DNA of 64,000 nt, taken from assembly GCA_963718615.1 (NCBI GenBank), contig OY970368.1:4672001-4736000 (forward strand), written 5' to 3'. The notes below the pieces were generated by a model. That model had not been told where the DNA came from, searched no databases, and saw only the letters and a program-made list of their open reading frames with translations. A program made the translations under genes and the position numbers. The stretch's first letter is position 1. The number at the start of each line of letters is the position of its first letter. This DNA is from an uncultured cyanobacterium (GTDB taxonomy: Bacteria > Cyanobacteriota > Cyanobacteriia > PCC-9006 > JAAUQQ01). This document shows, piece after piece, positions 38,900-55,299 of the stretch.

Positions 38900-40597
38900 A
38901 TGCCAGAAAACCGCAGAAGCCAAATCATCACCCAGGGCGTGCAGCGATCGCCCAACCGCGCGATGCTCCGGGCCGTAGGGTTTGGCGATGAGGATTTTAC
39001 CAAGCCCATCGTCGGGGTCGCCAGTGCCCACAGTACGATTACGCCCTGCAATATGGGGATTGCGCCCCTAGCGGAGCAGGCAGAAGCGGGAATCCGGCAG
39101 GCGGGGGGCATGCCCCAGATTTTTGGCACGATTACGATTAGTGACGGCATTTCCATGGGCACGGAGGGGATGAAATATTCCCTGGTGTCGCGGGATGTGA
39201 TTGCGGATTCGATCGAGACGGCCTGCATGGGCCAGAGTATGGATGGGGTGTTGGCGATCGGCGGCTGCGATAAGAATATGCCCGGTGCGATGATTGCCAT
39301 GGCGCGGATGAATATTCCGGCAGTCTTTGTCTATGGCGGAACAATTAAGCCCGGTCATCTGGATGGCCAAGACTTGACCGTGGTCAGTGCCTTTGAGGCG
39401 GTGGGCCAGTACAGCGCTGGACGGATCGAAGAGTCGATGCTCTATGCGGTTGAGCGCAATGCCTGTCCGGGGGCGGGATCCTGTGGGGGGATGTACACGG
39501 CGAATACGATGTCCTCGGCCTTTGAGGCGATGGGGATGAGCCTGATGTATTCGAGTACGATGTCGGCGATCGATGCAGAAAAAGCGAAGAATACGGCGCT
39601 GGCGGGTCAGGTTTTGGTGGAGGCGATTCGCAATCAGATTTTGCCGAGGGATATTATTACTCGCCAATCGATTGAGAATGCGGTGTCGGTGATTATGGCG
39701 GTGGGGGGATCGACGAATGCGGTGTTGCATTTTTTGGCGATCGCCCACGCTGCTCAAGTCGATTGGACTATCGACGATTTCGAGCGCATCCGCGCCAAGG
39801 TTCCGGTCCTCTGCGATCTCAAACCCAGCGGTCGCTATGTTGCGACGGATTTGCATCAGGCGGGTGGTATTCCCCAGGTGATGAAAATGCTGCTCAACCA
39901 TGGACTGCTCCACCCGGACTGTCTGACGGTGACTGGGGAGACGATTGCTGAGCGGCTGCGGGATGTGCCGGATGAACCGACGCCCTATGAGCCGATCGCC
40001 GGACATCCGGTGATTCGTCCCTGGGATAATCCGATGTATGCCCAGGGTCACTTGGCGATCCTTAAGGGCAATCTGGCCACGGAGGGAGCCGTGGCCAAAA
40101 TCTCGGGGGTGAAAAACCCCGTGATCACGGGACCGGCAAGGGTCTTTGAATCGGAGGAAGATTGCTTGGCGGCAGTCCTCGACAAGAAAATCAATCCCGG
40201 CGATGTGCTGGTGATTCGCTATGAAGGGCCGAAGGGTGGCCCCGGTATGCGAGAAATGCTAGCTCCGACTTCGGCGATTATCGGTGCGGGGCTTGGCGAT
40301 TCTGTGGGGCTGATTACGGATGGTCGTTTCTCGGGTGGGACCTACGGGATGGTGGTGGGCCATGTTGCGCCGGAGGCTTTTGTGGGGGGAACGATTGGCT
40401 TGGTCCAGGAGGGGGATTCGATTACGATCGATGCGCCCCAGCGGTTGCTTCAGCTCAATCTTTCCGAGGAGGAGTTGGCGCAGCGACGGGCGGCTTGGAC
40501 TCAGCCGGAACCGCGTTATCAGCGGGGGGTATTGGCGAAGTATGCGAAGTTGGTTTCGACGAGTAGTTTGGGGGCGGTGACGGATCGGGATCTCTAG
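38900..40597 (+). CDS. ilvD: Dihydroxy-acid dehydratase
   Basis: [33 protein letters not shown]. Confidence 0.97.
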
Positions 40598-40605
40598 GCA
40601 AGCCG

Positions 40606-40630
40606 GGACATGGCAATGCCATGTCCCTAC
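40606..40630. repeat. REP-like palindrome
   Basis: GGGACATGGCAATGCCATGTCCCTAC. Confidence 0.65.
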
Positions 40631-40668
40631 GGGATTCATGATGAACGTCAGTGATGCCCAAAAGTCTT

Positions 40669-40924
40669 CTAGCCATCTAGCGGACTGCGAACGCTTCGGC
40701 CTCCGCGATTGAGCACATGGGTGTAGATCATGGTTGTCTTGACATCTTTTTGACCCAGACGTAGACCGCTACTGTAGAGAATCTGAATCATTAGCCGATA
40801 AACCCCAGACAGGTTCTTAATGATTGCGCAAGTCTCATCAGTCTTGTCTGAACGATAAGAATTAATGTTTGAGACGCAAGGCTTCTCGAACCCTGTCTAG
40901 AAGCTTCTTTGGAGGTTTTTGCAT
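40669..40924 (-). pseudogene. intI: Integron integrase remnant A (multiply deleted)
   Basis: Manual translation: [20 protein letters not shown](fs)SYRSDKT / [28 protein letters not shown] / [28 protein letters not shown]. Confidence 0.88.
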
Positions 40925-40929
40925 GGTAG

Positions 40930-41079
40930 TGTGATAAATCGAATAATTCGGCAGATCACCCTAAATGGCATGATATTCAGAATAATTCTGATGTACTCCT
41001 GGGGATATAGGTCAAAATTCTGCATATCACCCCTCAGGGAGGCAATATACGGAAAACTCTGCATACTAAATTGTTAGAA
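40930..41079 (+). other. Putative attI-A with palindromic repeat array
   Basis: 4 units resembling GATAT.CAGAA..ATTCTGCATATC ending AAATT-GTTAGAA (41073-41079), divergent from intI-A. Confidence 0.6.
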
Positions 41080-41098
41080 TTTTTCATGACACTTTTTC

Positions 41099-41551
41099 AT
41101 GACACTCCCCATTGCCAACCTAATCATCCCGACTTGGGCCCTCTACACTACCAGTGGGCTCTTTGGGTTCCCCGTGATGCTGATCTTGGTGTCAATAGCT
41201 GAATCTGCCATCCTCATCCGTCCCAACTACCCTCACCACTCAGTCCCTCGCATCTTGGCTATGGTAACCATCGCCAATGCCGCCTCCACCATGGTCGGGA
41301 TCCTCATCCTCGCCATGGCAAATCCTCAACCACCCAGATCAGGTGATGCCGTCCTCGTACAAATCATCACGGCACCGACCATTATGGCCATATGCGCAAT
41401 GTGCCTTGCCTCCTTCATCATTGAGGCCCTTGTCCTCTTCCCCACCCTGCCCAAGGCACCCAAGCTAGACCTGATCGTCTACATACTCTTTGCCAATATT
41501 GTCTCATACTCGGCCTTCTACCTCATCGTCTTTTGGATCGAATTGTTTTGA
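41099..41551 (+). CDS. Small hydrophobic membrane protein at attI-A
   Basis: 4 TM-like segments; starts 20 nt after the GTT core. Confidence 0.7.
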   Translation: MTLPIANLIIPTWALYTTSGLFGFPVMLILVSIAESAILIRPNYPHHSVPRILAMVTIANAASTMVGILILAMANPQPPRSGDAVLVQIITAPTIMAICAMCLASFIIEALVLFPTLPKAPKLDLIVYILFANIVSYSAFYLIVFWIELF

Positions 41552-41603
41552 GAAATTTTTCCCAATTGAATCCTCTCCTTATCCCTTCAACCCCGTATCC
41601 AAA

Positions 41604-41843
41604 TTAACGTGAAGGCTTTGCCCGAAGGGCCTGAACATTTTCAAGTGGCTGTTGAAAAATCTCACGATAGAGAAATAAAACTGCACTTTCGGTCACGCCC
41701 ATGTCCTTGGGATGTCGCTTGTTGTGAAACAGAATGTAACGCCGAATCCACTGAACGTAAGTTTGCTCTGTTTTGTAGGAATAGTGATTGAGTCGTAGGG
41801 CTACACGGACTTGATCTAGAAGCTTGGGGGGCTGGGATTGCAT
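41604..41843 (-). pseudogene. intI: Integron integrase remnant B (N-terminal SAM-like domain only)
   Basis: KLLDQVR..LRL.HYSYKTEQTYVQWIRRYILFHNKRHPKDMG / SAVLFLYRE...RAK. Confidence 0.92.
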
Positions 41844-41918
41844 GGGAGCCGAGGATGAAGCCTCTGGGTTCCCTGACTCGGTGGTGAAGATTTTGTAATT
41901 TTCTACGCTGACTCAAAT

Positions 41919-42164
41919 GGGGTGATTATACTGAGACATGCCTGATAATACCTGTGTAGGGATGTTATCCGGCAGCGGTGCCGGGATAACGCCTAGAAAT
42001 GGGTTGTTATCACGCACCTTCGCCTGATAATACCCAACCAGGGATGTTATCCAGCATGATTGCCTGGATAACTGGCTAAGACTGGGGATTATACGGCGTT
42101 GGCGCTTGAGAATACCCGGAGGAGGGAGTTATCAGGCATCGTGCATGAGAATAAGTTGTTATGC
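41919..42164 (+). other. Putative attI-B with six ~41-bp palindromic repeats
   Basis: Units RTTATC.GGC-N5/6-GCC.GATAA at 41925, 41964, 42006, 42046, 42088, 42128; core GTTATGC 42158-42164. Confidence 0.75.
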
Positions 42165-42615
42165 CGCTGAGTTTCTGGTGGAGACATAGCCGCAATATTG
42201 CTTACTGGTGTCCGATATCAAGTTGCTTTGAGACAACGCAAATCGAGAGTTGCCTTAAAAGTAGAAAGCTCAAAAACCTTCTACATTGTCTATGCCGTTG
42301 AGTTATGTTATTACCAAGCAATTCATAAGTAATTAAAGAGACATGACAACCCTGCTTGTTCTTGGCAATATTAATCAGTTTACATTTGCAAACTCTGTAA
42401 TCGCAGCTAACGCCAAGGCTGAGGAAATATTTGAGCAGGGTCTAACAAATATATTTGTTGTGCATTCAAGAGACTCCTATACCAAGCTAAAGAGTAATGA
42501 AGATTGGGTAGATCATGCAGAGGCAAATGGTGTAAGCCGAGAATTATTTGTTGATAAAATTGTTGAGATCACAGCAGAAGATGACTCAATTAAAAGATTC
42601 GTTGATTATATTGAG

Positions 42616-43474
42616 GGTAGTGCCTTTAGCTGGGGGATGAGTATGGTGTGGCCATTAGAGAAAGAAAAAGCAAACTGGGTAAGACCCTTCTGTGCCAATT
42701 GCGATGACTCAAGAGCTGCTTCATTGTCCTAACTGTCTATCTGAAGATATCAGCCGTAACGGCTTCAACGATCGCGGTACTCAAAGCTATAAATGTCGAG
42801 ATTGCCATCGCCGGTTTGTCCTGACTCCGAAATCCCTTCCCTTGAGCGATGAAGAGATAGCCTTGCTCGAACGTTTATTGCTTGAAAGGCTAGCCATCGC
42901 TGGAATTGCTCGGGTGATGCAGCGCTCCGAGAGCTGCATTCAGACCTACGTCAACGCCAAAGCTAAAACCGTTGCTCGGGAGGTGGAAGTGACGAAGAAA
43001 GTAAAAAAGCTCTGACGGTCCAGATGGACGAACTCTGGTCGTTCGTGGACCATAAAGGAAATAAACAGTGGGTTTGGATTGCTCTAGATGCGGACACTCG
43101 CGAAATCATTGGCCTTTATATCGGGGACCGAAGTGCTAAATCTGCCGAAGCTTTATGGCGGTCTCTACCGGGAGTGTACCGCCAATGTGCAGTCATCTAC
43201 ACCGATTATTGGGAGAGCTATGCCTGTGTGCTTCCTAGCCAACGCCACCGAGCGGTTGGGAAAGAAAGCGGGCTGACGAGCTACATCGAGAGGTTCAACT
43301 GCACCCTGCGGCAAAGGGTGTCGCGCTTGGTCCGAAAGGCGCTCTCGTTTTCAAAGAAACAAGAGAACCACGAGGCTGCGATCTGGAATTTCGTTCACCA
43401 TTACAACCAGCAATTGCGCCTTAAGCAGGCTCATACCGCTTCATTCTCTCCAGCACCCACATAATTGGACTACC
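42616..43474 (+). mobile_element. IS1-family element (859 bp)
   Basis: GGTAGT... / ...ACTACC ends; 9-bp target duplication TATATTGAG (42607-15, 43475-83). Confidence 0.93.
42692..43464 (+). CDS. IS1 transposase InsA/InsB, -1 frameshift
   Basis: CPNC...YKCRDC zinc ribbon; AAAAAAG at 43003-43009; MDELWSFV, YTDYW, IERFNCTLRQR. Confidence 0.9.
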
Positions 43475-44678
43475 TATATTGAGTTTATTTTAAAAGGTAT
43501 CCCAAATGGATCAAGACTTATCGTTGATATTACAAATGGGACTTCATTACAAAAAAATCTACTCTCAATAGCTTCTTATATCCTTGACATAAAAAATCAA
43601 TACACGATCGATGTTTCCAAGTTGTTTGAACTAACTAAAGAAAGAGGCTTTCTGCCAACTGATATTTTGCTATCCTGCTATGCCCCAGTTCCTGATAGCA
43701 CTAGACTTGATGGCATCGCCTATCTAAATCTGTCAGAAATGGTACGCTACAGGAAAATTATAGAATCTCATACTAACAAGTATGTAGCCATAGATCCAAG
43801 TTCCTCTGATAGAGAGTTTTTCAAGGATAACTTGGGTCATTCTATTCAGTTAAAGTTACAAGGAGATCAAAGCAAAGATAACGCTATATATCGCATAGCG
43901 GCTTCATCAATTTCGGCAAGCGTGGAGGATCTAATTCGTCTTCTGGTGAGCAAATTTATCCTAGCTGATACTCCTGATGGAGTAGATCGCAAAACTTTTG
44001 GGCAAAAACTCAAAATTATTCAAGCCAAAATTGAGAAAGATGCGCCGTCTGACTTTGATATAGAGTTTTTTAGCAAGTTCAATGATTTCATTTTGTACTT
44101 GAGAAATAGTTCCACACATAAAGGTAAGCTTTTAACTGACTTGGAGAAGTTCAAGGCAGAGCTTTCTGTCAAAATGGCTTTTCCCTTTATTGAATTTTAT
44201 ACAGATATCGTGCATCCTTTGCTATCAAGTGGTGAGCTTTCTAGAGAGCCAAAGCATATGAAAAAATTAACGTATGCTGATATAGCACCAGGAGACACCT
44301 TGTATTATGGGTTGGACGGAGATGATACAGGAAAGATATTAGAAGAACTTTTTCTTGCCTGTAGCGATGAATCTAGCTTTCGGAAATTGAGCAAAGATGT
44401 AGCAAATGCGATTTCAAAAATTTCTAGATTTGTTACTGATAAGCTTGGTAAGAATGCAATTGTATTTGAGGCGGGTGACGATCTTTTGTTCAAGGGAAAT
44501 TTTCAAGAAGATATGCTTTTGGAAATGCAAGCTATGTATTCACAATTAACACCTGGGCTAACGTGTTCAATTGGTTATGGGCGATCATTTCAAGAGGTAT
44601 ATTTAGCATTAAAACTCGCAAAGACCCAGCCAGGTAAAAATGCTATTGTTGGAATTGAGCTTTGCTGAGCTTGTCGCA

Positions 44679-45354
44679 GCATAACATAGGCCCTGAGCCG
44701 GACGGGGTCAATAGAGAAGATAAAAAATAACTCTGATGTAATGTCTGAGCGAATTGAAGCCAGCGCAAACCACCTGATAGTCAGTTTTGAGTATCAGCCG
44801 AACTGAGCTATCAGAGCCATCTTCGTATTTTTCGTATTCGATTGGTTCAAAACCTAAAGCAGTTCAATCGAGCAACAAAATAGAGACCTAAGCCGGTAAA
44901 AGAGCGACCAAAGGAGAGTTTTTGCGCCGGAGAGCAGCGAGATACTTTTCCTCATCATAAGGAGTCCTATCCTGCCAACACCGCCAAAGAATCCGACCCC
45001 CTTTATACGCCAAAGCACGAATAGCCTTTTGATGGGATTTACCCGCCAGTCGTTTTTGTTGATAAAATGCCTGTGACCAGACCGAGCGAGACCGAGCATG
45101 GGTGACCCACTCGACAAAAGTTTGCCTCAGAAAGATAGGACAAGACCAACGCCAATGGACCCAACGTTGCTTGCCAATTTCCTCCGCCTGAGGGGTGGCC
45201 TGAATAGTGGATTGTGCCCAGGTCTCATTCTGGCAATCGTAGAGAGCAATATCATGTTTGCGGTCTGTCCAATCAATGCCGATATAGGCAGCATAAACGG
45301 TTGTGAAGAGATTAGGTCAAAGGTCTTTCCCTGCTCCCTGAGGATTCGTTAGGC
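44679..45354 (+). other. attC1 (degenerate, interrupted by IS110 derivative)
   Basis: R'' GCATAAC complements cassette start GTTATGC; R' GTTAGGC 45348-45354. Confidence 0.6.
44731..45325 (-). mobile_element. Internally deleted IS110-family element, copy 2
   Basis: YAAYIGIDWTDRKHD fused to RWVHWRWSCPIFLRQTFVEW...AIRALAYK...YDEEKYL; same ends as copy 1. Confidence 0.85.
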
Positions 45355-45577
45355 AGCGAGCGGATGGGCTGGACGGGCGATTCGATTGGTTAGTAGTCAT
45401 CTTCTGACTGGCGCTGCATAGTCGTCCCGACAATCTGGCAGATGCTCTCCTTTCTTGACTTTATGCGCTTCTGTCAAATTCGCGCATGGGAGAGGGATGA
45501 GCGATTCGGTATGTTCGTAGACATCCTCTGTGTCGTCCAATGCATAGTCGTCTCTTCCTGGTTCTTCTTCCCCGTCC

Positions 45578-45666
45578 CCCATAAAGTCGATGAAGCGGAC
45601 GGTTGGAAGATTTATTTTTGCGGGGATGCTGAGGTTGCCTGCCGCCGCTTGTCTTGGTCGTTAGAC
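45578..45666 (+). other. attC2 (R'' damaged)
   Basis: GATGAAGCGGACGG...CCGCCGCTTGTC arms with extrahelical bases; R' GTTAGAC. Confidence 0.75.
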
Positions 45667-45953
45667 CGACAAAGCAAGATAGAGAAACAAGCAAGAGAAT
45701 TTGAGTTTTCCGGTGTTGGAGACAGTCTTGTGGCAGAATCAGCAGAACGCAATCAAGAAACTTCACCGACAAACTTGCAACGATCGCTGAATCAGAAACA
45801 TGAAAAAGCCTTAGGGGACAAGCTGTATCAGACAGAAAGAAATAGATTCTTGTCAGTTCGTTCCCTGACCTTCTCACACTGCGCGTGTTTCCGCCCATCA
45901 GCATAGTTAATTAGGGTAAAATGAGAGGGCTGAGTTGAAATGAGGTCAAGCCT

Positions 45954-46226
45954 ATGACAGTTCGCCAACGACGGTATAGCAAGGAAGAGTTAGCCCGACG
46001 CGGACAAGAACTCTATGAGTCTGGAATTCGGCAGCAGGTTGAAGCCGGTAACGATGGAAAAATTGTGGCGATCGACATTGAAACCGGAGAGTTTGAGGTT
46101 GATGAAACGGTCATGGGTGCGACCGATCGGCTATTTGAACGCCTGCCTGATGCTCAACCTTGGACGCTGCGAATCGGACACAGCGCCGTCTATCATTTTG
46201 GAGCGAGGAGTCTGAAGAAAGATTAA
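45954..46226 (+). CDS. Cassette 3 small hypothetical protein (DUF5678-like)
   Basis: EELARRGQELYE, GKIVAIDIETGEF. Confidence 0.75.
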   Translation: MTVRQRRYSKEELARRGQELYESGIRQQVEAGNDGKIVAIDIETGEFEVDETVMGATDRLFERLPDAQPWTLRIGHSAVYHFGARSLKKD

Positions 46227-46594
46227 TGATTCGTGGAGTGGTTAATTTTCGCTATGAACTCATGCTTCCCCTTGTAGTCGGGAACTCGAATGGACAACGA
46301 GAGTTCGTCAATACCGTAATCGATACTGGATTTGATGGGTTCTTGTCCTTGCCCTCTGAAATAATTGCTCGTCTTGAATTGCCTTGGAGGACTTCCAATA
46401 TCGCGACCTTGGGAGATGGTAGCAAAACCCTGTTTGACTTTTACACCGGAACCGTCATCTGGGATGGTCAATATCGCTCGATCGACATTGCTGAATCAGA
46501 GACGGAACCCCTGCTAGGACTGGCAATACTTCGCGGATATCGATTGCAGGTCGATAATGTTGAGGGAGGTATCGTCGAGATTGATGCACTGTGA
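46226..46594 (+). CDS. Cassette 3 clan AA aspartic protease
   Basis: VIDTGF.G.L.LP, PLLG; TAATG coupling to upstream gene. Confidence 0.88.
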   Translation: MIRGVVNFRYELMLPLVVGNSNGQREFVNTVIDTGFDGFLSLPSEIIARLELPWRTSNIATLGDGSKTLFDFYTGTVIWDGQYRSIDIAESETEPLLGLAILRGYRLQVDNVEGGIVEIDAL

Positions 46595-46623
46595 TTGTGT
46601 GCGAGAGTGATCGGTGAGGCGCG

Positions 46624-46707
46624 GTCTAACAATGCGATGGAGCGGCGAATAAAGTTTTTTCGCTTCGTTTCGGTTCTACTTGTCGCTGCTCATCTTCACC
46701 GTTGTGC
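46624..46707 (+). other. attC3 (84 bp, intact-looking)
   Basis: GTCTAAC-AATGC-GATGGAGC...GCTCATC-TTCACC-GTTGTGC. Confidence 0.88.
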
Positions 46708-46796
46708 CGCTGGTTTAAGGTGTTACTGTTTCTGAAGATTGATCGGTCACCTGCGAGAATTAATTACACATCGTTAGCTATATTGAAAGCACTTTT

Positions 46797-47339
46797 ATGT
46801 TAAAAGCTGGAAGGCTTACGACTTGGAAGGATGATCGTGGTTTTGGGTTTATCGAACCTGAAGATGGCAGCAAAGCCGTCTTCCTTCACGTCAGCGAAGT
46901 CAAGAATTTGAGTCGTCGTCCGCAGACTGGTGACACAGTTTTTTACGAGCCACGGGTTGAGAACAATGGGAAAGTGCGTGCAACTAAGGTCTCGATTCAA
47001 GGCGTTGCACCTCGAAGCATTACACCTCGAAATCAGCCTGTAGGTGGTCGGTTTCAACAGCGAATTGTCGAAACTGCCATCGCACTTGCCTTACTAATAG
47101 CGATTGTGGCTGTGGGCAGCCGATTTGTGCCAAGCCGCTCTCCATCTCCTATAGCCGCAGTGACCAAGCCGAACTGCCAGATTAAAGGAAATATTTCGGT
47201 TTCATCGGGCAACAAGATTTATCACCTGCCAGGGATGGAAGACTATGCATCGACTGTAATTGATGAAGGCGCTGGAGAGCAGTGGTTTTGTTCTGAGTCA
47301 GAGGCGATCGCGGCAGGGTGGAAGAAGGCTCCTCGCTAG
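46797..47339 (+). CDS. Cassette 4 cold-shock-domain membrane protein with C-terminal CxIKGN module
   Basis: W.DDRGFGFI, VFLHVS; TM; CQIKGNI...KIYHLPG...WFCSE.EA..AGW. Confidence 0.88.
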   Translation: MLKAGRLTTWKDDRGFGFIEPEDGSKAVFLHVSEVKNLSRRPQTGDTVFYEPRVENNGKVRATKVSIQGVAPRSITPRNQPVGGRFQQRIVETAIALALLIAIVAVGSRFVPSRSPSPIAAVTKPNCQIKGNISVSSGNKIYHLPGMEDYASTVIDEGAGEQWFCSESEAIAAGWKKAPR

Positions 47340-47347
47340 TTTCCGCA

Positions 47348-47372
47348 GCACAACAACGTTGTACCGTTGTAC
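47348..47372 (+). other. attC4 collapsed to 25 bp
   Basis: R'' GCACAAC complements GTTGTGC; R' GTTGTAC; no L boxes. Confidence 0.65.
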
Positions 47373-47429
47373 CGCTTCGTTTTAGGTTGTGGCGGTAAGC
47401 TAAAAATTACCGGGTTTCTCAAATTCGTA

Positions 47430-47459
47430 TTGACACTGTACATACGTCTTGTTTAGAAT
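47430..47459 (+). promoter_or_regulatory. Sigma70-type promoter of TA cassette
   Basis: TTGACA-18 nt-TAGAAT, 7 nt before ATG. Confidence 0.7.
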
Positions 47460-47466
47460 TATAGGC

Positions 47467-47763
47467 ATGGACGTTTATTGTGTGCTGAATGGCATTACAT
47501 TTATCTGGAATCCAGAAAAGGCCCGGATTAATCCAGTCAATCATGATGGGATTACCTTTCAGCAAGCGGCTGAGGCATTTTTTGATCCATTCCTGATTCT
47601 GGTTGATGCCAGTCGCAACGATGAAGCAAGAGATGCCGTGATTGGCCTGGATACACGCTATAACTTGCTTTATGTCGTGCATATTGAGCAAGAGGGTGAT
47701 TGTATTCGGATTATTTCTGCGCGTAAAGCAACCCGACAAGAGAGGATGAACTATGAAAGTTGA
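47467..47763 (+). CDS. Cassette 5 BrnT-family toxin
   Basis: F.W..EKA.IN...H.GITF..A...F.D, IRIISARKAT..ER..Y. Confidence 0.92.
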   Translation: MDVYCVLNGITFIWNPEKARINPVNHDGITFQQAAEAFFDPFLILVDASRNDEARDAVIGLDTRYNLLYVVHIEQEGDCIRIISARKATRQERMNYES

Positions 47764-48046
47764 AGCCTTAAAGAAAAGATTGGATAAGAATCGACCTATG
47801 AGCAGCGTAACGATTCGGATGCCGGAAGATGTCGTGGAAGACTTGAAGCGAGTTGCGCCATTGTTAGGCTTTTCTGGATATCAGCCATTGATTCGGGCTT
47901 ACATCGGCCAGGGATTACGTGCTGACTTGGAGCGATTTGAAGGTGAGATGGTGAGTGCGTTGATTGCCAGCTTGAAGCGACGGGGTGTGAGCGATACCGT
48001 AATTGATGAAGCGTTGAGAGAGGTTGTGCCAGCGGTAGCCAGTTAA
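47753..48046 (+). CDS. Cassette 5 BrnA/CopG-like antitoxin
   Basis: VTIRMPEDVVEDLK, GYQPLIRAYI; overlaps toxin. Confidence 0.85.
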   Translation: MKVEALKKRLDKNRPMSSVTIRMPEDVVEDLKRVAPLLGFSGYQPLIRAYIGQGLRADLERFEGEMVSALIASLKRRGVSDTVIDEALREVVPAVAS

Positions 48047-48062
48047 TCTGTGTTTACCAGCA

Positions 48063-48149
48063 GTACAACAACTTGGATGCAGCGGACTCGCAGGATTGAT
48101 CACTAATGGACGTAGCGTAGCTTCGAGCCGCTGATCAAAAACGTTAGTG
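48063..48149 (+). other. attC5 (87 bp, intact-looking)
   Basis: GTACAAC...GATGCAGCGGACTCG...CGAGCCGCTGATC-AAAAAC-GTTAGTG. Confidence 0.88.
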
Positions 48150-48156
48150 TTCAAAA

Positions 48157-48416
48157 TCACGAAGCAACAACGCAAGTTTGAGCTTGTGCATGAGATTTAG
48201 ATTTCACTACAATTTCCACATCTCGCCCCAAAGCATTGAGAAAGCGAAAGAATCGTGCGGTCGAAAAACCTGCTAGTGTTCCTTGGTTCGTTTCAGTCTT
48301 GCTTCGATCAGGTCAATATCCTGCCTAGGCGTAGCAATCCCTTGCTTTGATTTTTTCTGGAAAGCATGTAAGACGTAGACCCCTCCAGCCAGTTTTACCG
48401 TGTAGACGGCTCGATA
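48157..48416 (-). pseudogene. RelE/Gp49-like toxin and XRE antitoxin C-terminal fragments
   Basis: YRAVYTVK...VYVLHAFQKKSK.GIATP..DIDLI..RLK; GFSTARFFRFLNALGRDVEIVV*. Confidence 0.8.
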
Positions 48417-48539
48417 TCCCTTCCGGCTCAGGCCAGTGGAAAAGGCATGTTGCCTCGGTGTTCCCAGCTTTAACAGGTTGCTGATACGAGTCCTTGGTCT
48501 CCGCAACTGTTTCCAGTAACACATCCGGATCCGTCGTCT
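48414..48539 (-). pseudogene. Group II intron maturase fragment
   Basis: RRRIRMCYWKQLRRPRTRISNLLKLG......STGLSRKGY. Confidence 0.75.
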
Positions 48540-48752
48540 TGAAAAATCACTCCCAGATATTCACGGTAGCGACAGACTTTTCTCTCCTTCATGATTTAAT
48601 TCATTGAGCACATTGTGAAGCAGTTCGGGGGTCTTTGGTTGGCTCTGGGCAGAGAATTCGTAATTCCCGGTTCCCCCGGTGTTGATCGATAAAAGGAGGG
48701 CTGGCAGTGCATCTGTACAGCATTCTTTCCACTTCCGCTGTCGTTCTGTCTG

Positions 48753-50732
48753 ATGAATAAAATGCTTAGGACTCTCAGTCTTACGGGGTTGGTTTCGACG
48801 CCTAATTCTTCGACGGTTGCTGACGCAAGTTTGGCTGAAGCGTTTGCGCCGCCGCAAACCCTGTTGGAAGCTCAGTCGCTCTGTAGCCTGATCCTCACCC
48901 CCGAGAGCCGTGAACTGCTTTTGGAGGCGCTCCGTCAAGCGGATCGTCTGCCCCGCCCCGGAGAAAAAGCTCAAGCATTAATTGATTTGGCTTGGACGTA
49001 CAAGCGTTTTGAGATTCCTTCTGCTCGGCTTTTGCTGATCCGTGCTGAATTCCTGGGTCAGTCAGCTCCTGTACCAGAAAGGATTGTGTTGCTACAACAG
49101 TTGATAGAAGCCTATCACTGTTTTGATGAGACAGAGACCGAGGCGCAGCGGCTGATCGAGATGGCATTACCGCTGGTTCGCACCCTAGGAGATCGCCCCT
49201 CCGCCACAGATAACGCCATCTCTGGGATCGCCATGACCTATGCACAGGCAGGTGAAATGGATTGGGCTGAGGCGATCGCCCGCGAAATTCGCGATCCCGA
49301 GATTCGCCTCACGGCCACCCGTCTGCTTGCTGAAGCAACAGAATCTGAGTTTGAGTCCGACATCTCTCTTTCTGTAGACCACCACCCAACCGCTTGGAAT
49401 GCCTCCTTAACCTGGATCAGTCCTGAAGAGGCTGACACCAAAGGGTTAATCGAACAAATCGAAGCGTTGGATGAGCGACTGGGCCAAGGGGAGACCCTAA
49501 CCGCAGCGGAGATCAGTCCTCTGGTTCAAGCGTTGACCGCCCTGCCTGCTTCGATGGTGCAATATCTCTACGGCCAGGAGTTGGCAGTGCGACTGGCTCA
49601 AGCCCAGCTCTTTGAACTGGCTCAGCAGGTGATCCAATCCATCCCCGTGCCTGCGGAAGTGGAACCCTTGTGGGGAGCCGCAGAACAATATTCACAACCG
49701 TTTGCCCTGGCAAAACTTGCCGGACGCTTAGCCTTAGAAGGTCATCTTGCCCAGGCCCTGCAACTGGTTGATACCCTACCCGACACCAACGCTAACAAGC
49801 GGGCGGAACAGGCGATCACCCGTACGGCGATCGCCAATACCCTCTTGATTCAAAACGATCTTGAATCTGCCCAAATCTGTTTGGCGGAAGCGGTTCAGCT
49901 AGCCCAGGATCTGCCCGCGACCCTGGATCAAGCCTGGGTTTTGATGTCCATTGCCACGACCTATCGGCTAAAAGGGGACCAGGAATTGGGGCAGGAATTT
50001 ATAGCTCGGGCGATCGCCCTCAATCCCAATTTAGCCGTCTATGGGGAAACCTTTGAAGCAGGAGCAGCCATGCTTCAACCTACCCAGAGCCGTCCGCTAG
50101 AGATTGATGCCATTGCGGAATTTTGGCAAGCGGTGGATCAAGGGGCTGTAGACCGGGCAGCCCATCTTCTCGACATCCTGGACGATGCCGATGAGCAGAT
50201 GGACCTGCTGCCAGTGCTTGCAGCGATCCAAGAACAAGCCGGTCAAATACTACAAGCCAGGGACGCCCTCCAGCAAGCCCTACAACTCGCCCAAGCAGAA
50301 CGGTATCAACGCTCTGAAACCTTTGAACAGGACTCTGAATCAGCGGTATTTGCAGAACAAATTACCCAGATTCGCTATAACTTTATGAGCAGTGGCGGCA
50401 GTTTGTCTGTCCTCCAATGGGTCTTGCAACATAGTTTGAAGGACCAGGCTGATGCAGGGCTTCGCCAACAGCTTTGGGAAGAGGCGATCGCCACCCACTT
50501 GTATCGAGTAATCTACAGTGAGGCCGCAACGGTTGAGGAGTTACAAACGCTCATTCCATTTCTGGATCAGCTTTCAATTTCAACTCAACAAACCGAACTA
50601 ACCCTGGGCCTGATTTCAGCCTTCACAAAACAAGAAGATCCTGCCACCGCCAGACAACTGACTGACCGATTGTCGCCCAGTCATCAAGTTAAAGCCCTCG
50701 CCGAAATGGCACAGGTCTATGGCAGAAATTAG
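48753..50732 (+). CDS. Helical-repeat (TPR-like) hypothetical protein
   Basis: 659-aa Ala/Leu/Gln-rich repeats. Confidence 0.75.
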   Translation: MNKMLRTLSLTGLVSTPNSSTVADASLAEAFAPPQTLLEAQSLCSLILTPESRELLLEALRQADRLPRPGEKAQALIDLAWTYKRFEIPSARLLLIRAEFLGQSAPVPERIVLLQQLIEAYHCFDETETEAQRLIEMALPLVRTLGDRPSATDNAISGIAMTYAQAGEMDWAEAIAREIRDPEIRLTATRLLAEATESEFESDISLSVDHHPTAWNASLTWISPEEADTKGLIEQIEALDERLGQGETLTAAEISPLVQALTALPASMVQYLYGQELAVRLAQAQLFELAQQVIQSIPVPAEVEPLWGAAEQYSQPFALAKLAGRLALEGHLAQALQLVDTLPDTNANKRAEQAITRTAIANTLLIQNDLESAQICLAEAVQLAQDLPATLDQAWVLMSIATTYRLKGDQELGQEFIARAIALNPNLAVYGETFEAGAAMLQPTQSRPLEIDAIAEFWQAVDQGAVDRAAHLLDILDDADEQMDLLPVLAAIQEQAGQILQARDALQQALQLAQAERYQRSETFEQDSESAVFAEQITQIRYNFMSSGGSLSVLQWVLQHSLKDQADAGLRQQLWEEAIATHLYRVIYSEAATVEELQTLIPFLDQLSISTQQTELTLGLISAFTKQEDPATARQLTDRLSPSHQVKALAEMAQVYGRN

Positions 50733-50748
50733 CATAGGTCGCATAGTC

Positions 50749-53700
50749 TTAGAGGGTAAAATGATTGGCATGAATCGTAAAGGCATTGACATTTAGCAGT
50801 ATCGCAACTTGCTGCAAGCTGCCGCCCACCTCTGCCTGAATAATCGTATTTAATCCCAATTGTTGAGCCTGAATTATTGTTCCAAAAGTGGAATTGCCAT
50901 GATAGATCGCATTGAGATCTAGGCGATCGAAGAGAATTTCAAAATCCAAAATCGTATCGCCATAGTCTTGTGTTGATTCGTAGAGGAAGCGATCGCTTCC
51001 CTGTCCACCCATCAAGATATCGCTACCCAATCCCCCAACTAATAAATCATCACCATTGCCTGCCTGCAGAATGTCATTACCACTGCCACCGTAGAGACTA
51101 TCATTGCCGCTGTTGCCATTTAAAATATCATTGTCATTGCCGCCATCAATCCAGTCATCACCACTGCCCCCCGTAATCAGATCTTTGCCATCTTCCCCTA
51201 GAATGCGATCGTTTCCACTCCCCCCGTTAACCACATCATCTCCGGCTCCAGCCCGAATTTGATCAACTCCGCTTCCCCCATTGTTAATATCATCGCCATT
51301 GCCCCCAGCAATTTCGTCTGCTTCACTTCCTCCATTGATAATGTCGTTGCCATGACCACCATCAAGCAAATCGTTATCGCTCAGGCCACTGAGTATATCA
51401 TTGCCCTCGGTTCCCGTAATGACATCAGCACCACCGCCTGTGGGGCCGGAAGGAGGTTGGGGAGGATTGGGCTCAATTTGAATCGTGACCGTTGCAATTT
51501 TGCCGTTCACCCAATAGGTCAGCGTATCGGTCCCTATGAAATTCGAATTAGGGATGTATTCAAGCTGATTATTTTGATTGATTGAAACGCTGCCATGGGT
51601 CGGCGCGAGTTGAATTGAAAGGGGGCCTTCTAAGGGATCATTGGCCAGAACATCAATGATTGTTTTGGGAGAATTGGCCTTAAGCTTTGCAGTGTCGTCT
51701 TGGGGAAAAGCATCGACTGTCAAAGTGCTAATAGCCGTATTACTATTAGCTGTTCCGTCATTGAGCTTTAGGGTAAAGATGCGATCGCCTAAGGTTGGTT
51801 TTGAGGCAGTGTTACTGTAGGTAAGCGATCGCAAGAGTTCATCTACATCGGCTTGTGATAAATCACCACCACCACTTTTGGTAATCGTGATCGTTGAGCC
51901 ACTATCGATCATCGAAACAGAAAAGCTGGTAGAGCGATTGGGAACCGTTACGCTTTGACTACTGTTTGTATTCAGGGGCAACTCAAGGTTGCCAATCTTG
52001 AGGATTTCATGAGGACCATTTGCCAGGCCAGAGACCGCTATTGTGATGGTTTCAATATCATCGCCGCTGGGATCTGAGCCGGTCGCTCGAAGCGGGTCAG
52101 CGATCGTTGCCGCCGCTCCCCCCGCAACGAAGGTGCTGCTGTAGTCAACGCCAGACTGACCCTCGTTGCCATTTCCATTGAGGTCAAGGATAGGTGGCTC
52201 GTTGGCATCGGGAATGCCGTTGCCATTGCCATCCTTTTGAAACGTGACAGTGAAAGTTTTGATGCCGGATGATTTTGTATCAGTTTCTTGAGGGCTATTA
52301 AAGAGCTGATCTCCATCTAAATCTGTTTGATCCAGACTTATACCCTCTAGTTCTAAACTCAATAAACCGACAAATTCTGGAGGAGGAACCAGGATTAAGC
52401 CTGCCAAGTCTTCGGGGGTAAAGATCCAAGTATTACTGCCTTGCTTACTGCCAATTGATGTTGAATCCTTGGTAAAGGTAAAGCCATCCGGCACATTGCG
52501 AATTGTATAGATTAGGGTTTCTGAACCATCTGTATCCGCAGGGGTACTGCCCGTGAGCGATAGGGCAATCGGCTGGTTTTGAATGCCTGTTGCGCTGATT
52601 GCTGTCACGCTGGGTATTTCGGCGATGGGTAGCACTGTGACTGTGACCGTAGCAGGCTTACCGTTAACGCTATAGGTGAGACTATCTACGCCACTAAAGT
52701 GAGGATTAGGTTGATATTCAATCTCGTTATTATTGTTGACGAGAGCCGTGCCTTGGGAAGGTTCGGATTGGATAGAAACAGAGCCATTGAGTGGATCGTT
52801 AACTAATACATTGATGACGGTACTGCTTGCATTTTCTTGAACGGTAATCGTATCGTCTTGGGGAAACGCATCGACGGTGATGGTGCTAACAGCGAGGTTA
52901 CTGTCGGCTGTTCCGTCGTTGAGTTTGATTAAAAATGTGCGATCGCCCAAGGTTGGCGTAGATGCCGTATTTTTATAGGAGAGCGATCGCAGAACCGCTT
53001 CAACTTCGGATTGGCTCAGATCGCCACTGCCATCTTTGGTTATTGTAACTTTCGTTCCATTGTCTGTAATCGCAATAGAAAAAGTTGTCCCGCTATTTGG
53101 TAGTACAAAACTTTGACTGGTGTCAGCATTGAGTGGAAACTCAAGATTAGCAATCTCGAAAACTTCATTGGCTCCATCGGTAAGGTTGGTGATGGCGATC
53201 GTAATTTTTTCAATATCGGGTTCGTTAAAATCGCTGCCTGTTGCGTTCGTTGGACTGGCGATCGCAATAGCGCTGCCGCCCGCAGTAAAGGTTGTAGAAT
53301 ACCCATCTCCAGAATTAGCTGAGCCATTTAAATCTAGAACTGGCGCAACGTTATCAACTCCATTAATCGTAATGGTAACGGTCGCATCATCGGTGCCACC
53401 TCTGCCATCGGATACGGTATAAATAAAGCTATCTTTTGCGGTTTGACCACTGGTCAAACCATTAAACTTGCCATTGGGATCATAACTATAAGAACCATTC
53501 GCATTGACCGTGAGCAACGCTCCTGATGACAACGTTATTTGCTGGCCAACTGCCGTAATCTGACCATTGACGGCTGCAACCGTGAGGGGATCTCCGTCAG
53601 GATCAAAGTCGTTCGCTAAAATGCCTGCGGCATTGACATTGAGCACAACATTTTCATTGGTAAGGCCCGTATCTCCGCCCGTCGTGATTAAATTGGTAAA

Positions 53701-54861
53701 GTTAAATTGTCGATTGCCATCAAAGATAAAACCTGATTGCTGAAATTCAGCAGTCAATAGGATTTCAAAAGAAGTCTTATATTCATAGTTAATTTGAAGT
53801 GCAAACTCAGGATCATTATCGTTTCCAGGGTTTTGAGAATTGTTCGGATCGTTATTTGCTGTTGAGGTAAAAACCAATTGGCCGTTGGACGGAGAGAGGA
53901 GCAGTTTAGTGGGCGCATTTATACCGTAGGTTGATACCTCGGACTGCGATACCGTGACAGAGCCAGAAAGACTACTATCTCTTTTGTCTAAATCTTTTAT
54001 AGTAAAACTAGAAGAAATCGGAACTGAAGTTGTTGTACCAGCCTCAAAAAATTCAAACTTTAGTTTGGCTGTGGTAACCCCAGAGATTGCTGAGTTCGAA
54101 AAGTTAAATTTGGCATCATCGCCAGCAACTGTAAAACTTGTTGTTCCCGTATCTGTTGTTTCGATCAGCGTCAGGCGAACATCTACGACGGTTCCATCTT
54201 TTGTAATACCGGCATTCTTGTAGAGGGCAACTGTTCCGGCTTTACCCATTTGACCATTGCCACCGGGATGACTCAGTGTGGGTGAGGAGAAGCTGAGATT
54301 AATCGCGTTAAATGTACTCGCATTACTGGCATCTGGAGCGATCGGTCCTGTATTTGTGGGCAGGACATGGGGATAGGCAATAATTTCTTCTTTGACAAAA
54401 GCAAACTCTTCTAGGGGATTGCCCAGATGAGTGTCTAACGTCCAATTGCCTCCTAGCTCTCCAGAACCGATTAGCGTACTAGAAGCAGAAAGACTAGCTC
54501 CGGTTAACTGATGGAGTTTTTCTAGAAACTCTGCACCGGCGTCACCGACAGCCACTCGACAGCCATATATCGAAATTGAGCTGATGGACCAACTTTCTAA
54601 TACTGCTTCGTAGAAAGCAAGCGTTTCCAAATTGAGCTGACTTTTGCCTAATAGGAGAGATCCGGGTGAGCCATGGGAAATAATATAGATATGGGGTTTT
54701 GACTCAGGCGATCGCGCCTTCAAAATCTCAGTGATTTGGAAAACACCATCGTCTTCACCCTTGAGAACATGAACCTCTATATTCGGTTTGATGGCATACA
54801 GCAGTAGCTCATACTGCTCTACTGTCGAATCAAGAAAAGCAATTGATGTTTGGATAGGCAT
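50749..54861 (-). CDS. Large secreted adhesin-like protein: DUF4347 + Ig/cadherin-like repeats + RTX Ca-binding tail
   Basis: IISHGSPG.L.LG, YGC.VA; ILANDFDPDGDPL; two PxLDLNG repeats; GGxGxDxLx nonamers. Confidence 0.9.
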   Translation of the reverse strand: MPIQTSIAFLDSTVEQYELLLYAIKPNIEVHVLKGEDDGVFQITEILKARSPESKPHIYIISHGSPGSLLLGKSQLNLETLAFYEAVLESWSISSISIYGCRVAVGDAGAEFLEKLHQLTGASLSASSTLIGSGELGGNWTLDTHLGNPLEEFAFVKEEIIAYPHVLPTNTGPIAPDASNASTFNAINLSFSSPTLSHPGGNGQMGKAGTVALYKNAGITKDGTVVDVRLTLIETTDTGTTSFTVAGDDAKFNFSNSAISGVTTAKLKFEFFEAGTTTSVPISSSFTIKDLDKRDSSLSGSVTVSQSEVSTYGINAPTKLLLSPSNGQLVFTSTANNDPNNSQNPGNDNDPEFALQINYEYKTSFEILLTAEFQQSGFIFDGNRQFNFTNLITTGGDTGLTNENVVLNVNAAGILANDFDPDGDPLTVAAVNGQITAVGQQITLSSGALLTVNANGSYSYDPNGKFNGLTSGQTAKDSFIYTVSDGRGGTDDATVTITINGVDNVAPVLDLNGSANSGDGYSTTFTAGGSAIAIASPTNATGSDFNEPDIEKITIAITNLTDGANEVFEIANLEFPLNADTSQSFVLPNSGTTFSIAITDNGTKVTITKDGSGDLSQSEVEAVLRSLSYKNTASTPTLGDRTFLIKLNDGTADSNLAVSTITVDAFPQDDTITVQENASSTVINVLVNDPLNGSVSIQSEPSQGTALVNNNNEIEYQPNPHFSGVDSLTYSVNGKPATVTVTVLPIAEIPSVTAISATGIQNQPIALSLTGSTPADTDGSETLIYTIRNVPDGFTFTKDSTSIGSKQGSNTWIFTPEDLAGLILVPPPEFVGLLSLELEGISLDQTDLDGDQLFNSPQETDTKSSGIKTFTVTFQKDGNGNGIPDANEPPILDLNGNGNEGQSGVDYSSTFVAGGAAATIADPLRATGSDPSGDDIETITIAVSGLANGPHEILKIGNLELPLNTNSSQSVTVPNRSTSFSVSMIDSGSTITITKSGGGDLSQADVDELLRSLTYSNTASKPTLGDRIFTLKLNDGTANSNTAISTLTVDAFPQDDTAKLKANSPKTIIDVLANDPLEGPLSIQLAPTHGSVSINQNNQLEYIPNSNFIGTDTLTYWVNGKIATVTIQIEPNPPQPPSGPTGGGADVITGTEGNDILSGLSDNDLLDGGHGNDIINGGSEADEIAGGNGDDINNGGSGVDQIRAGAGDDVVNGGSGNDRILGEDGKDLITGGSGDDWIDGGNDNDILNGNSGNDSLYGGSGNDILQAGNGDDLLVGGLGSDILMGGQGSDRFLYESTQDYGDTILDFEILFDRLDLNAIYHGNSTFGTIIQAQQLGLNTIIQAEVGGSLQQVAILLNVNAFTIHANHFTL

Positions 54862-55299
54862 GCTAGATAGACCTCGACAATACACCCCAAACCGAATGCA
54901 GACCTAGAGGGGTGCATCATCCGCGAGGTCTGTAGGAAGCAACGGAGAATTACTGTAAAATTTCCGCTATCCAGCCTCAGTATTACCAATCTTCACTGGC
55001 GTCTTAACACGGAAAACACGTATTTTCTAGCCTTTTTGATTTTCGTCATGGGTCTTCCTTCAACCTGTAATCCTTGGGAGACACTGCACTAAATAAAAGC
55101 AAATTGTGAATGATAAACGTATTTTCAAGGATGACGACAGACAATTGCTTTAAAGCCCTAGGATCGTCCTTTGGTAGATTCTATTGGACGATCGCAAAAT
55201 CACCAGCCAAAGACTCAAGTTTTTCTGCAAGATTACAGAGTTATCACCATCGGTAAATACTGAAAACAAGACTAATATCACCACGAAAAAGATATCGAC

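Follow-up and report, generated by a model that had tools for sequence, protein, structure and literature searches.

What is the row of small genes beside ilvD in an uncultured cyanobacterium, and can any part of it still move? The stretch that raises this question comprises 64,000 nucleotides (assembly GCA_963718615.1, contig OY970368.1, positions 4,672,001 to 4,736,000 of the forward strand) and is called the window here; positions are counted from its first letter, and those elsewhere in the genome bear the prefix C1. A reading made from the letters alone (the sequence-only reading) had proposed an unannotated integron, with a remnant of the integrase gene intI, an attI site and at least five cassettes. 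We arrive at the same system in a worn state: with a probability of about 0.93, the ilvD-adjacent locus is a decayed chromosomal integron, largely disabled. It is made up of two intI remnants in tandem, both dead, two attI sites, four cassettes and a terminal remnant. The layout runs from the divergent intI through attI to cassettes that all share one orientation, with both remnants on the minus strand and the cassettes on the plus strand, as had been proposed. The integron reading is upheld by remnants specific to intI, by an attI crossover taken from paralogs and by attC sites scored with a covariance model built without the window. As for the number of cassettes, four can be delimited, followed by the terminal remnant, which has no attC; a further truncated cassette is assigned to the second, upstream platform (attI-B) and not to the main array.

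Integrase remnants and the one intact intI

That both local integrases are dead had been read correctly. The piece next to the array, intI-A, corresponds to residues 1-100 of the IntI encoded elsewhere in the genome, aligned at 41616-41843 (tblastn) with an internal deletion of 24 amino acids; it keeps 76 codons at 50% identity to the intact protein, and the remainder of the gene is absent. The other, intI-B, survives as three scraps (tblastn), and the open reading frame (ORF) 40669-40791 on the minus strand covers profile positions 285-313 of the integron-integrase model TIGR02249 with 43.2 bits (cut-off 265). Being fragments, both pieces lie far under this cut-off, which applies to the whole protein. 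A genome search for an intact intI, recommended by the sequence-only reading, found one full-length gene at C1:948635-949606 (443.8 bits against the same cut-off of 265, no stops), whose product aligns with Vibrio cholerae IntIA (VchIntIA, PDB 2A3V; E 7.9e-90) from one end to the other. Three more loci in the genome hold intI remnants (C1:3859666-3860405, 4646232 and 1907122).

One could hold that there is no integron here at all, and that chance inverted repeats happen to lie next to the remnant of a generic Xer-like tyrosine recombinase. The shortness of the pieces and their low scores would suit this idea, and XerD/XerC models also match the C-terminal piece (E 0.005-0.01). However, the best models for both pieces are TIGR02249 and then NF011946, both for integron integrases and at least eight orders of magnitude ahead of any others. 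The attC sites and cassette cores, to which we return below, bear on this idea as well.

The attI platforms

About 290 bp upstream of 42160 are repeated about ten times in the genome, with the similarity ending at 42160-42168 (blastn of 40600-42400). Eight of these attI-A copies, the one in the window included, can be aligned up to the junction; all read ...TTGTT (one ...TTTTT) and diverge right after the GTT, and the crossover is therefore placed at G42158/TT, where the slash marks the point of exchange. The window thereby presents an attI next to an intI piece, with a cassette inserted at G/TT. In seven of the eight copies, an attC recognised by our covariance model R2 follows in the right orientation within 0.6-3.4 kb. 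A recognisable intI piece stands beside attI-A only in the window and at C1:3859k; the other copies are flanked by housekeeping genes (leuC/leuD-like, permease, amine oxidase, inositol monophosphatase). Contigs of other public sequencing runs carry attI-A too and diverge past 42161, two in run X1 and three in run X3. The copies outside the window lie at C1:417505-417793, 427904-428184, 745646-745858, 1015304-1015642, 3859327-3859800, 3906943-3907233 and 4096873-4097170, each with a different first cassette at G/TT; four of them seem, by eye, to retain just the first 6-10 codons of intI.

Could the cassettes have been placed here by rearrangement or by insertion at a secondary site, leaving the intI pieces as unrelated debris? 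The genome is rich in insertion sequences (IS), with nine IS1 copies counting the one in the window and at least eight copies of an IS110-family element, and the abutting platforms need at least one rearrangement. Against this, the order of divergent intI, attI and cassettes in the same orientation is canonical, the first cassette begins exactly at the attI crossover, and the paralog at C1:3859327-3859800 retains the same junction of intI-A with attI-A (96.8% identity). We regard such an origin as quite improbable.

The attI1 site of class 1 integrons has several binding boxes for IntI. The attI-A platform is like it in carrying several direct and inverted GTTA-type boxes over a few hundred bases upstream of a crossover at G/TT; unlike attI1, it holds six exact GTTATC boxes and a terminal GTTATGC within 200 bp, and its 290 bp platform is present in many copies, so the two are likened by layout only. 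The six exact boxes lie at 41964-42133, within 170 bp, out of 25 GTTATC matches in the window, and may be regarded as candidate integrase-binding boxes. Tandem units of about 75 nt, which we had thought visible in attI-A, were not reported by Tandem Repeats Finder, whose one finding was a 13 nt repeat at 41080-41106, and the platform is therefore described by its boxes. A consensus scan for the promoter Pc gave 9 sites where 9.8 were expected, with one match of 9/12 in attI-A (42004-42031); the promoter and terminator scan as a whole stayed at background level.

The upstream platform, attI-B, has paralogs at C1:4518548 and C1:1477318, three copies in all, which are alike up to ...AAATTGTT and then diverge at once; the ORF of 150 amino acids at 41099-41551 is therefore read as the truncated first cassette (B1) of the attI-B platform. 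No attC is left in B1 (no R2 match), and its ORF has no match in Pfam, NCBIfam or PADLOC. An exact 13 nt tandem repeat, TTTTTCATGACAC, stands in 2.1 copies at 41080-41106, right after the attI-B crossover, and overlaps the start of this ORF.

The attC sites

The attC sites were sought with two covariance models. R1 was seeded with a single attC at C1:3858284-3858376, picked by the analyst, and brought up 16 genomic places (E up to 10); R2 was built from an alignment (A4) in which 12 uninterrupted attC sites, all outside the window, had been aligned to R1, and was run on the whole 64 kb with filters off. Up to E 10 it returned 9 matches, the best four of which are the four predicted sites, all on the minus strand, with nothing else below E 2. 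R1 matches two of these places, 45579-45666 and 48063-48149. In A4, 94.6% of the cells are paired as opposed to 74.4% in shuffles (28-41% in slid controls), and 14 of 19 pairs show a compensatory change. In the window, the sites at 45579-45666, 46624-46707 and 48063-48149 show the R''-L''...L'-R' geometry of attC and are recognised by a covariance model built without them. Our own hairpin and motif scanners were too noisy to define attC, and the covariance models were used in their place; three attC sites were also aligned with plain MAFFT (A1), but this alignment, not being structure-aware, was left unused.

The sequence-only reading had staked its case on such a model scoring two of its sites, attC3 and attC5, and the home-made R2 scores both, at 19.8 and 35.3 bits. 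It had also described L boxes with extrahelical bases in attC2, attC3 and attC5, and these were seen at 45586-45666, 46624-46707 and 48063-48149. On the bottom strand, the predicted folds put the bulged bases in the 3' arm, which is the side expected for attC bulges. The fourth site, at 47348-47372, is degenerate, and here GTTGTACC occurs twice in tandem.

Cassette starts and their inverse cores

The four pairs of core and inverse core lie where they had been placed by the sequence-only reading: GTTATGCCGC at 42158 with GCAGCATAAC at 44676, GTTAGACCG at 45660 with CGGTCTAAC at 46622, GTTGTGCCGC at 46701 with GCAGCACAAC at 47345, and GTTGTACCGC at 47366 with GCAGTACAAC at 48060. When each 10-mer at a cassette start is set against its own inverse core in reverse complement, six of the seven positions after GTT agree in every pair, 24 of 28 in total; in this sense the start and the inverse core of each cassette complement each other. 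Only one of the 24 permutations of starts and inverse cores reaches this figure, the real one, and the mean is 18.5. Over the 17 cassettes of the genome, the four in the window among them, 94 of 119 positions match, compared with 60.5 +/- 4.8 in re-pairings (none of 100000 shuffles reaches 94). A degenerate 10-mer core motif was counted at 381 places across the genome of 6.1 Mb; a stretch of 5.9 kb here contains eight of these, the genome's largest cluster, followed by three clusters of five.

These results also tell against chance repeats beside an Xer-like remnant. The top window matches of R2 are confined to the predicted places, the pairing statistics hold, the paralogs break at GTT, and an IS of known attC-targeting behaviour sits in the sites. 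The unremarkable folding energies of the sites are in keeping with chance repeats, but we rate this reading as the least probable of all, and very improbable overall.

Several observations do weigh against a decayed integron and have to be set beside the rest. The attC models are home-made from this genome's own sites and started from one chosen seed, and the pair counts in A4 benefit from that alignment having been fitted to the model. The site at 46624-46707 was missed by the single-seed R1 and reaches just 19.8 bits with R2. Four of the 17 cassettes match their inverse cores at no more than 4/7, and the core rule was counted as failed at C1:3859k and C1:4097k (3/7 and 4/7), both outside the window. 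The folding energies of the bottom strands are no better than those of shuffles at three sites (z -0.16, -0.85 and -1.26). Folding these strands had been proposed by the sequence-only reading; the bulged L boxes appeared, but the energies were not significant against shuffles, and support for attC consequently comes from conserved sequence, structure and position and not from stability. Gain or loss of whole cassettes at this locus, lastly, is seen only through contigs of other runs and only at the outer junctions, 42161 and 48143, because the cassettes of the window have no paralogs in the genome and the relatives compared are all outside the genus.

Table 1. Features of the decayed integron beside ilvD, in window positions.
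Feature	Position	Strand	Remarks
intI-B remnant	40675-40924	-	three short pieces: residues 1-26 (with stop), 111-138 and 293-320 of the intact paralog (tblastn)
attI-B region	40925-41075	+	crossover G41073/TT; lies behind intI-B
truncated cassette B1	41074-41603	+	membrane-like ORF of 150 amino acids, 41099-41551
intI-A remnant	41604-41843	-	TIGR02249 positions 1-45, 51.7 bits (cut-off 265); PF13495
attI-A platform	41844-42160	+	conserved from about 41871; crossover G42158/TT
cassette 1	42159-45660	+	CARF-HEPN-mCpol gene, 42343-42606 and 43475-44668
IS1-family element	42607-43474	+	InsA/InsB-like ORFs; NF033558, PF03400, PF03811; splits the mCpol gene; 9 nt target duplication
R'' box of attC1	44679-44685	+	GCATAAC; severed from the remaining site by the IS110-family element
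IS110-family element	44686-45585	-	internally deleted, non-autonomous; interrupts attC1; its transposase reads against the direction of the array (blastn)
attC1 remainder	45586-45666	+	L'', variable loop, L', R' (GTTAGAC); R2 match 45579-45666 (-), 35.2 bits, E 5.8e-8
cassette 2	45661-46701	+	ORF of 90 amino acids, 45954-46226; clan AA aspartic-protease-like ORF, 46229-46594
attC of cassette 2 (attC3 of the sequence-only reading)	46624-46707	+ (array); R2 match on -	whole; R2 19.8 bits, E 0.0026
cassette 3	46702-47366	+	protein of 180 amino acids, 46797-47339: cold-shock domain, hydrophobic stretch, sunset domain (PF00313, NF051437)
degenerate attC	47348-47372	+ (array); R2 match on -	R'' GCACAAC and R' GTTGTAC alone, with 11 nt between them; L boxes lost; 10.4 bits, E 2
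cassette 4	47367-48143	+	BrnT toxin, 47449-47763; BrnA-like antitoxin, 47753-48046
attC of cassette 4 (attC5 of the sequence-only reading)	48063-48149	+ (array); R2 match on -	whole; R2 35.3 bits, E 5.2e-8; R1 21.7 bits
terminal cassette remnant	48144-48600	-	frameshifted Gp49/HigB-like toxin gene, 48273-48592; no attC after it

Cassettes and their cargo

Cassette 1 measures about 1.73 kb once its two insertions are subtracted. Its CARF-HEPN-mCpol gene matches the PADLOC profile PDLC01967 at positions 1-89 (119.6 bits) and 135-471 (517.3 bits), and Pfam mCpol with 131 bits. The IS1-family element that splits it has eight further copies in the genome at 99-100% identity, which implies recent transposition; in a contig of run X6 the gene is uninterrupted, with 42606 joined to 43475 and 9 letters shared. 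In cassette 2, the protease-like ORF reaches 52.9 bits with TIGR03698, just under the cut-off of 57.35. In cassette 4, BrnT matches PF04365 with 75.9 bits and the BrnA match is weak (17.7 bits, cut-off 26.1), and the cassette has a promoter-like site of its own at 47430-47459 (11/12 in the consensus scan). The Gp49/HigB-like gene of the terminal remnant matches PF05973 (42.5 bits) with its C-terminal part alone; the match to a contig of run X6 begins at 48143. No paralogs of the window cassettes were found in the genome.

The cargo had been called enriched in defence and toxin-antitoxin (TA) genes. This holds for the PADLOC candidate CARF_HEPN_mCpol, broken by IS1, for the BrnT/BrnA pair and for the Gp49/HigB-like pseudogene, but nothing of the kind was assigned in the other two cassettes.

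An IS110-family element inside attC1

The first of the four core pairs, 42158 with 44676, is real but spans an attC that has been split by an attC-targeting element of the IS110 family. The element was inserted after the R'' box, and attC1 is therefore 44679-44685 together with 45586-45666. A full copy at C1:2245191-2247013 encodes a protein of 421 amino acids (DEDD_Tnp_IS110 and Transposase_20), and its gene, C1:2245535-2246800, matches PF01548 with 96.2 bits and PF02371 with 59.4 bits, which makes it a DEDD transposase. The window copy, at 0.9 kb, has lost some 0.9 kb of the full element and with it most of the transposase gene. In all eight copies the left flank is a variable 7-mer ending in AAC, and in all five that have a right end the right flank is the remainder L''..L'-R' of an attC (R2 35-72 bits). 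At least eight copies or fragments, always right after the AAC of R'', have TAA(C/A/T) repeated at both junctions. A subterminal inverted match of 8 nt, CCCCGTCC / GGACGGGG, was also noticed by eye.

According to the literature (Tetu and Holmes 2008, cited in PMC3001079 and PMC11187229), the IS1111-attC group includes ISPa21, ISPst6 and ISKpn4; following PMC3001079, its members insert close to the 5' end of attC and in antisense to the array, as is the case here. The window element is like this group in belonging to a DEDD (IS110) family, in its place near the 5' end of attC, in its antisense orientation and in the reuse of one position in different attC; unlike the group, it resides in a cyanobacterial host and is an internally deleted derivative of 0.9 kb, so that the two are likened by behaviour and not by phylogeny. 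The nearest plasmid-borne homologs of the transposase are 54% (Leptolyngbya) and 44% (Klebsiella) identical, and the context of the Klebsiella plasmid homolog, the one inspected, is not an integron. We consider the element a candidate for an attC-guided seekRNA or bridge-RNA element in a cyanobacterium. It shows attC targeting at work outside Proteobacteria.

Proposed formation, decay and possible residual mobility

Insertion of circular cassettes by IntI is the established mechanism for integrons. We propose that it applies here as well: circular cassettes would have been inserted through a folded bottom strand, and the complementarity of start and inverse core would be its footprint. Of the two platforms in tandem, the second (the intI-A remnant with attI-A) heads the array of four cassettes, each beginning at the TT of the G/TT crossover and ending in an attC whose inverse core complements its own start. 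Decay has gone far: intI-A is down to 76 codons, a defective IS110-family element that targets attC splits attC1 after R'', the L boxes of the attC between cassettes 3 and 4 are gone, IS1 splits the mCpol gene, and the last cassette is a pseudogene without attC.

The loss of the L boxes at 47348-47372 means that cassettes 3 and 4 are fused. Two whole attC sites are left in the array, at 46624-46707 and 48063-48149, and since there are just these two, the fused cassettes 3 and 4 would be the only unit that an integrase acting in trans could still excise by recombining attC with attC. The sequence-only reading had called the array frozen unless IntI acts in trans. Frozen in cis it is, and an intact intI does exist elsewhere; but even in trans, excision would probably be confined to this one fused unit.

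Elsewhere in the genome cassettes have moved. A cassette of about 205 bp without an ORF is found three times (C1:948283-948486, 5044951-5045154 and 4665770-4665997), at 90-97% identity and with ends at the predicted crossovers, and one of the copies is the first cassette of the integron with the intact intI. This is mobility of cassette units within the genome.

An integron spread over the chromosome?

The array might, on another reading, be a live node of a distributed integron, in which the intact IntI (C1:948635-949606) serves attI platforms without intI in trans, inserting cassettes at attI-A and excising them between attC sites. Passages of Cury et al. (PMC4889954) argue that cassettes in attC-site clusters that have no integron-integrase (CALIN) may be mobilised by an integrase encoded elsewhere. 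The genome has one intact full-length IntI, eight type-A attI copies that each have a different first cassette exactly at G/TT, seven of them with an R2 attC farther on, and the cassette of about 205 bp in three copies with exact ends, one of them beside the intact intI. Integron integrases are, however, usually specific for their own attI, and the intact IntI adjoins a different attI type, its first 100 residues being only 50% identical to the intI-A remnant. The array retains only two whole attC, and the differing first cassettes could predate the loss of intI. We think a live node possible, though on the whole unlikely.

The genome has no fewer than 13 attI junctions, which fall into three sequence types: type A with eight aligned copies, type B with three, and the type beside the intact intI with two. 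They are scattered beside housekeeping genes, mostly without an intI remnant, and have cassettes of their own starting at G/TT. We speculate, with somewhat greater doubt still, that the unit multiplied in this lineage is the attI platform and not the integrase; if the intact IntI serves these platforms, they would form a distributed integron of which the ilvD locus is one worn-out node. If true, there would be one recombinase for many insertion sites, and the wider attI pattern is the part that could matter. Because integron finders do not normally see attI, they would class architectures of this kind as isolated attC or as small CALIN. In the integron literature that we searched we met no account of such attI multiplicity; a direct term search was uninformative, and we make no claim that the pattern is unpublished.

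Relation to known integrons and to relatives

The decayed integron beside ilvD is an ordinary case of a well-known system. Cury et al. 2016 (PMC4889954) would term it attC sites clustered beside intI pseudogenes: it has at least two attC with no working intI nearby, as a CALIN does, fragments of intI where a complete integron has a functional gene beside the array, and four attC sites where a sedentary chromosomal integron has more than 19 or else occurs in every genome of its species. Sections of that paper list Cyanobacteria among the phyla with integrons, describe genomes with several integrases and report intI pseudogenes near 15 of 279 CALIN. The locus is like the chromosomal integrons and CALIN of those sections in its divergent intI, attI and same-strand cassettes each with an attC, in the R''/L''/L'/R' geometry with bulges and a G/TT point, in TA cassettes with their own promoters, and in that one genome has both a complete integron and arrays without an integrase. 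It is unlike the complete integron described there in having no working integrase in cis, tandem platforms, and just four attC, two of them damaged. PMC12901181 describes Delta-attI-type cassettes of mobile integrons, which are similar in that attI stands away from its usual single place by intI and flanks cassettes; there, however, pieces of attI lie inside cassettes of class 1 and 2 arrays, and here whole platforms stand alone by housekeeping genes.

Taken alone, the locus is one more degenerate integron in a phylum where integron integrases are common; they were found above the family cut-off in 14 of 31 related genomes, with G000 counted among them. Its use lies in illustrating cleanly how an integron decays, from intI deletion through an attC captured by an IS and the loss of L boxes to the fusion of cassettes. 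In a DNA search of 30 relatives, none of the same genus, ilvD was 69-75% identical and otherwise only scattered pieces of cassettes or IS were matched; intI beside ilvD was not found in those relatives that were checked for it. Among public sequencing runs, none had more than 0.18 of the sampled words, and no RNA run was listed among the carriers. An Rfam search of 40000-49500 at E up to 1 gave no match.

Neighbouring features

A palindromic hairpin at 40600-40645, right after ilvD, has similar copies at C1:97206, 1593704 and 4400733 and probably represents a short terminator-like repeat. Next to the start of the window lies a second decayed array, with an intI remnant at C1:4646232 and attC at C1:4649905, 4665878 and 4668886; its attC at C1:4671391 is split by an IS and extends into the window's first 2.5 kb (1-2451). 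Downstream of the array and outside the integron, a protein of 1378 amino acids is encoded at 50749-54885 on the minus strand; its C-terminal part carries glycine/aspartate-rich nonapeptide-like repeats that look RTX-like by eye.

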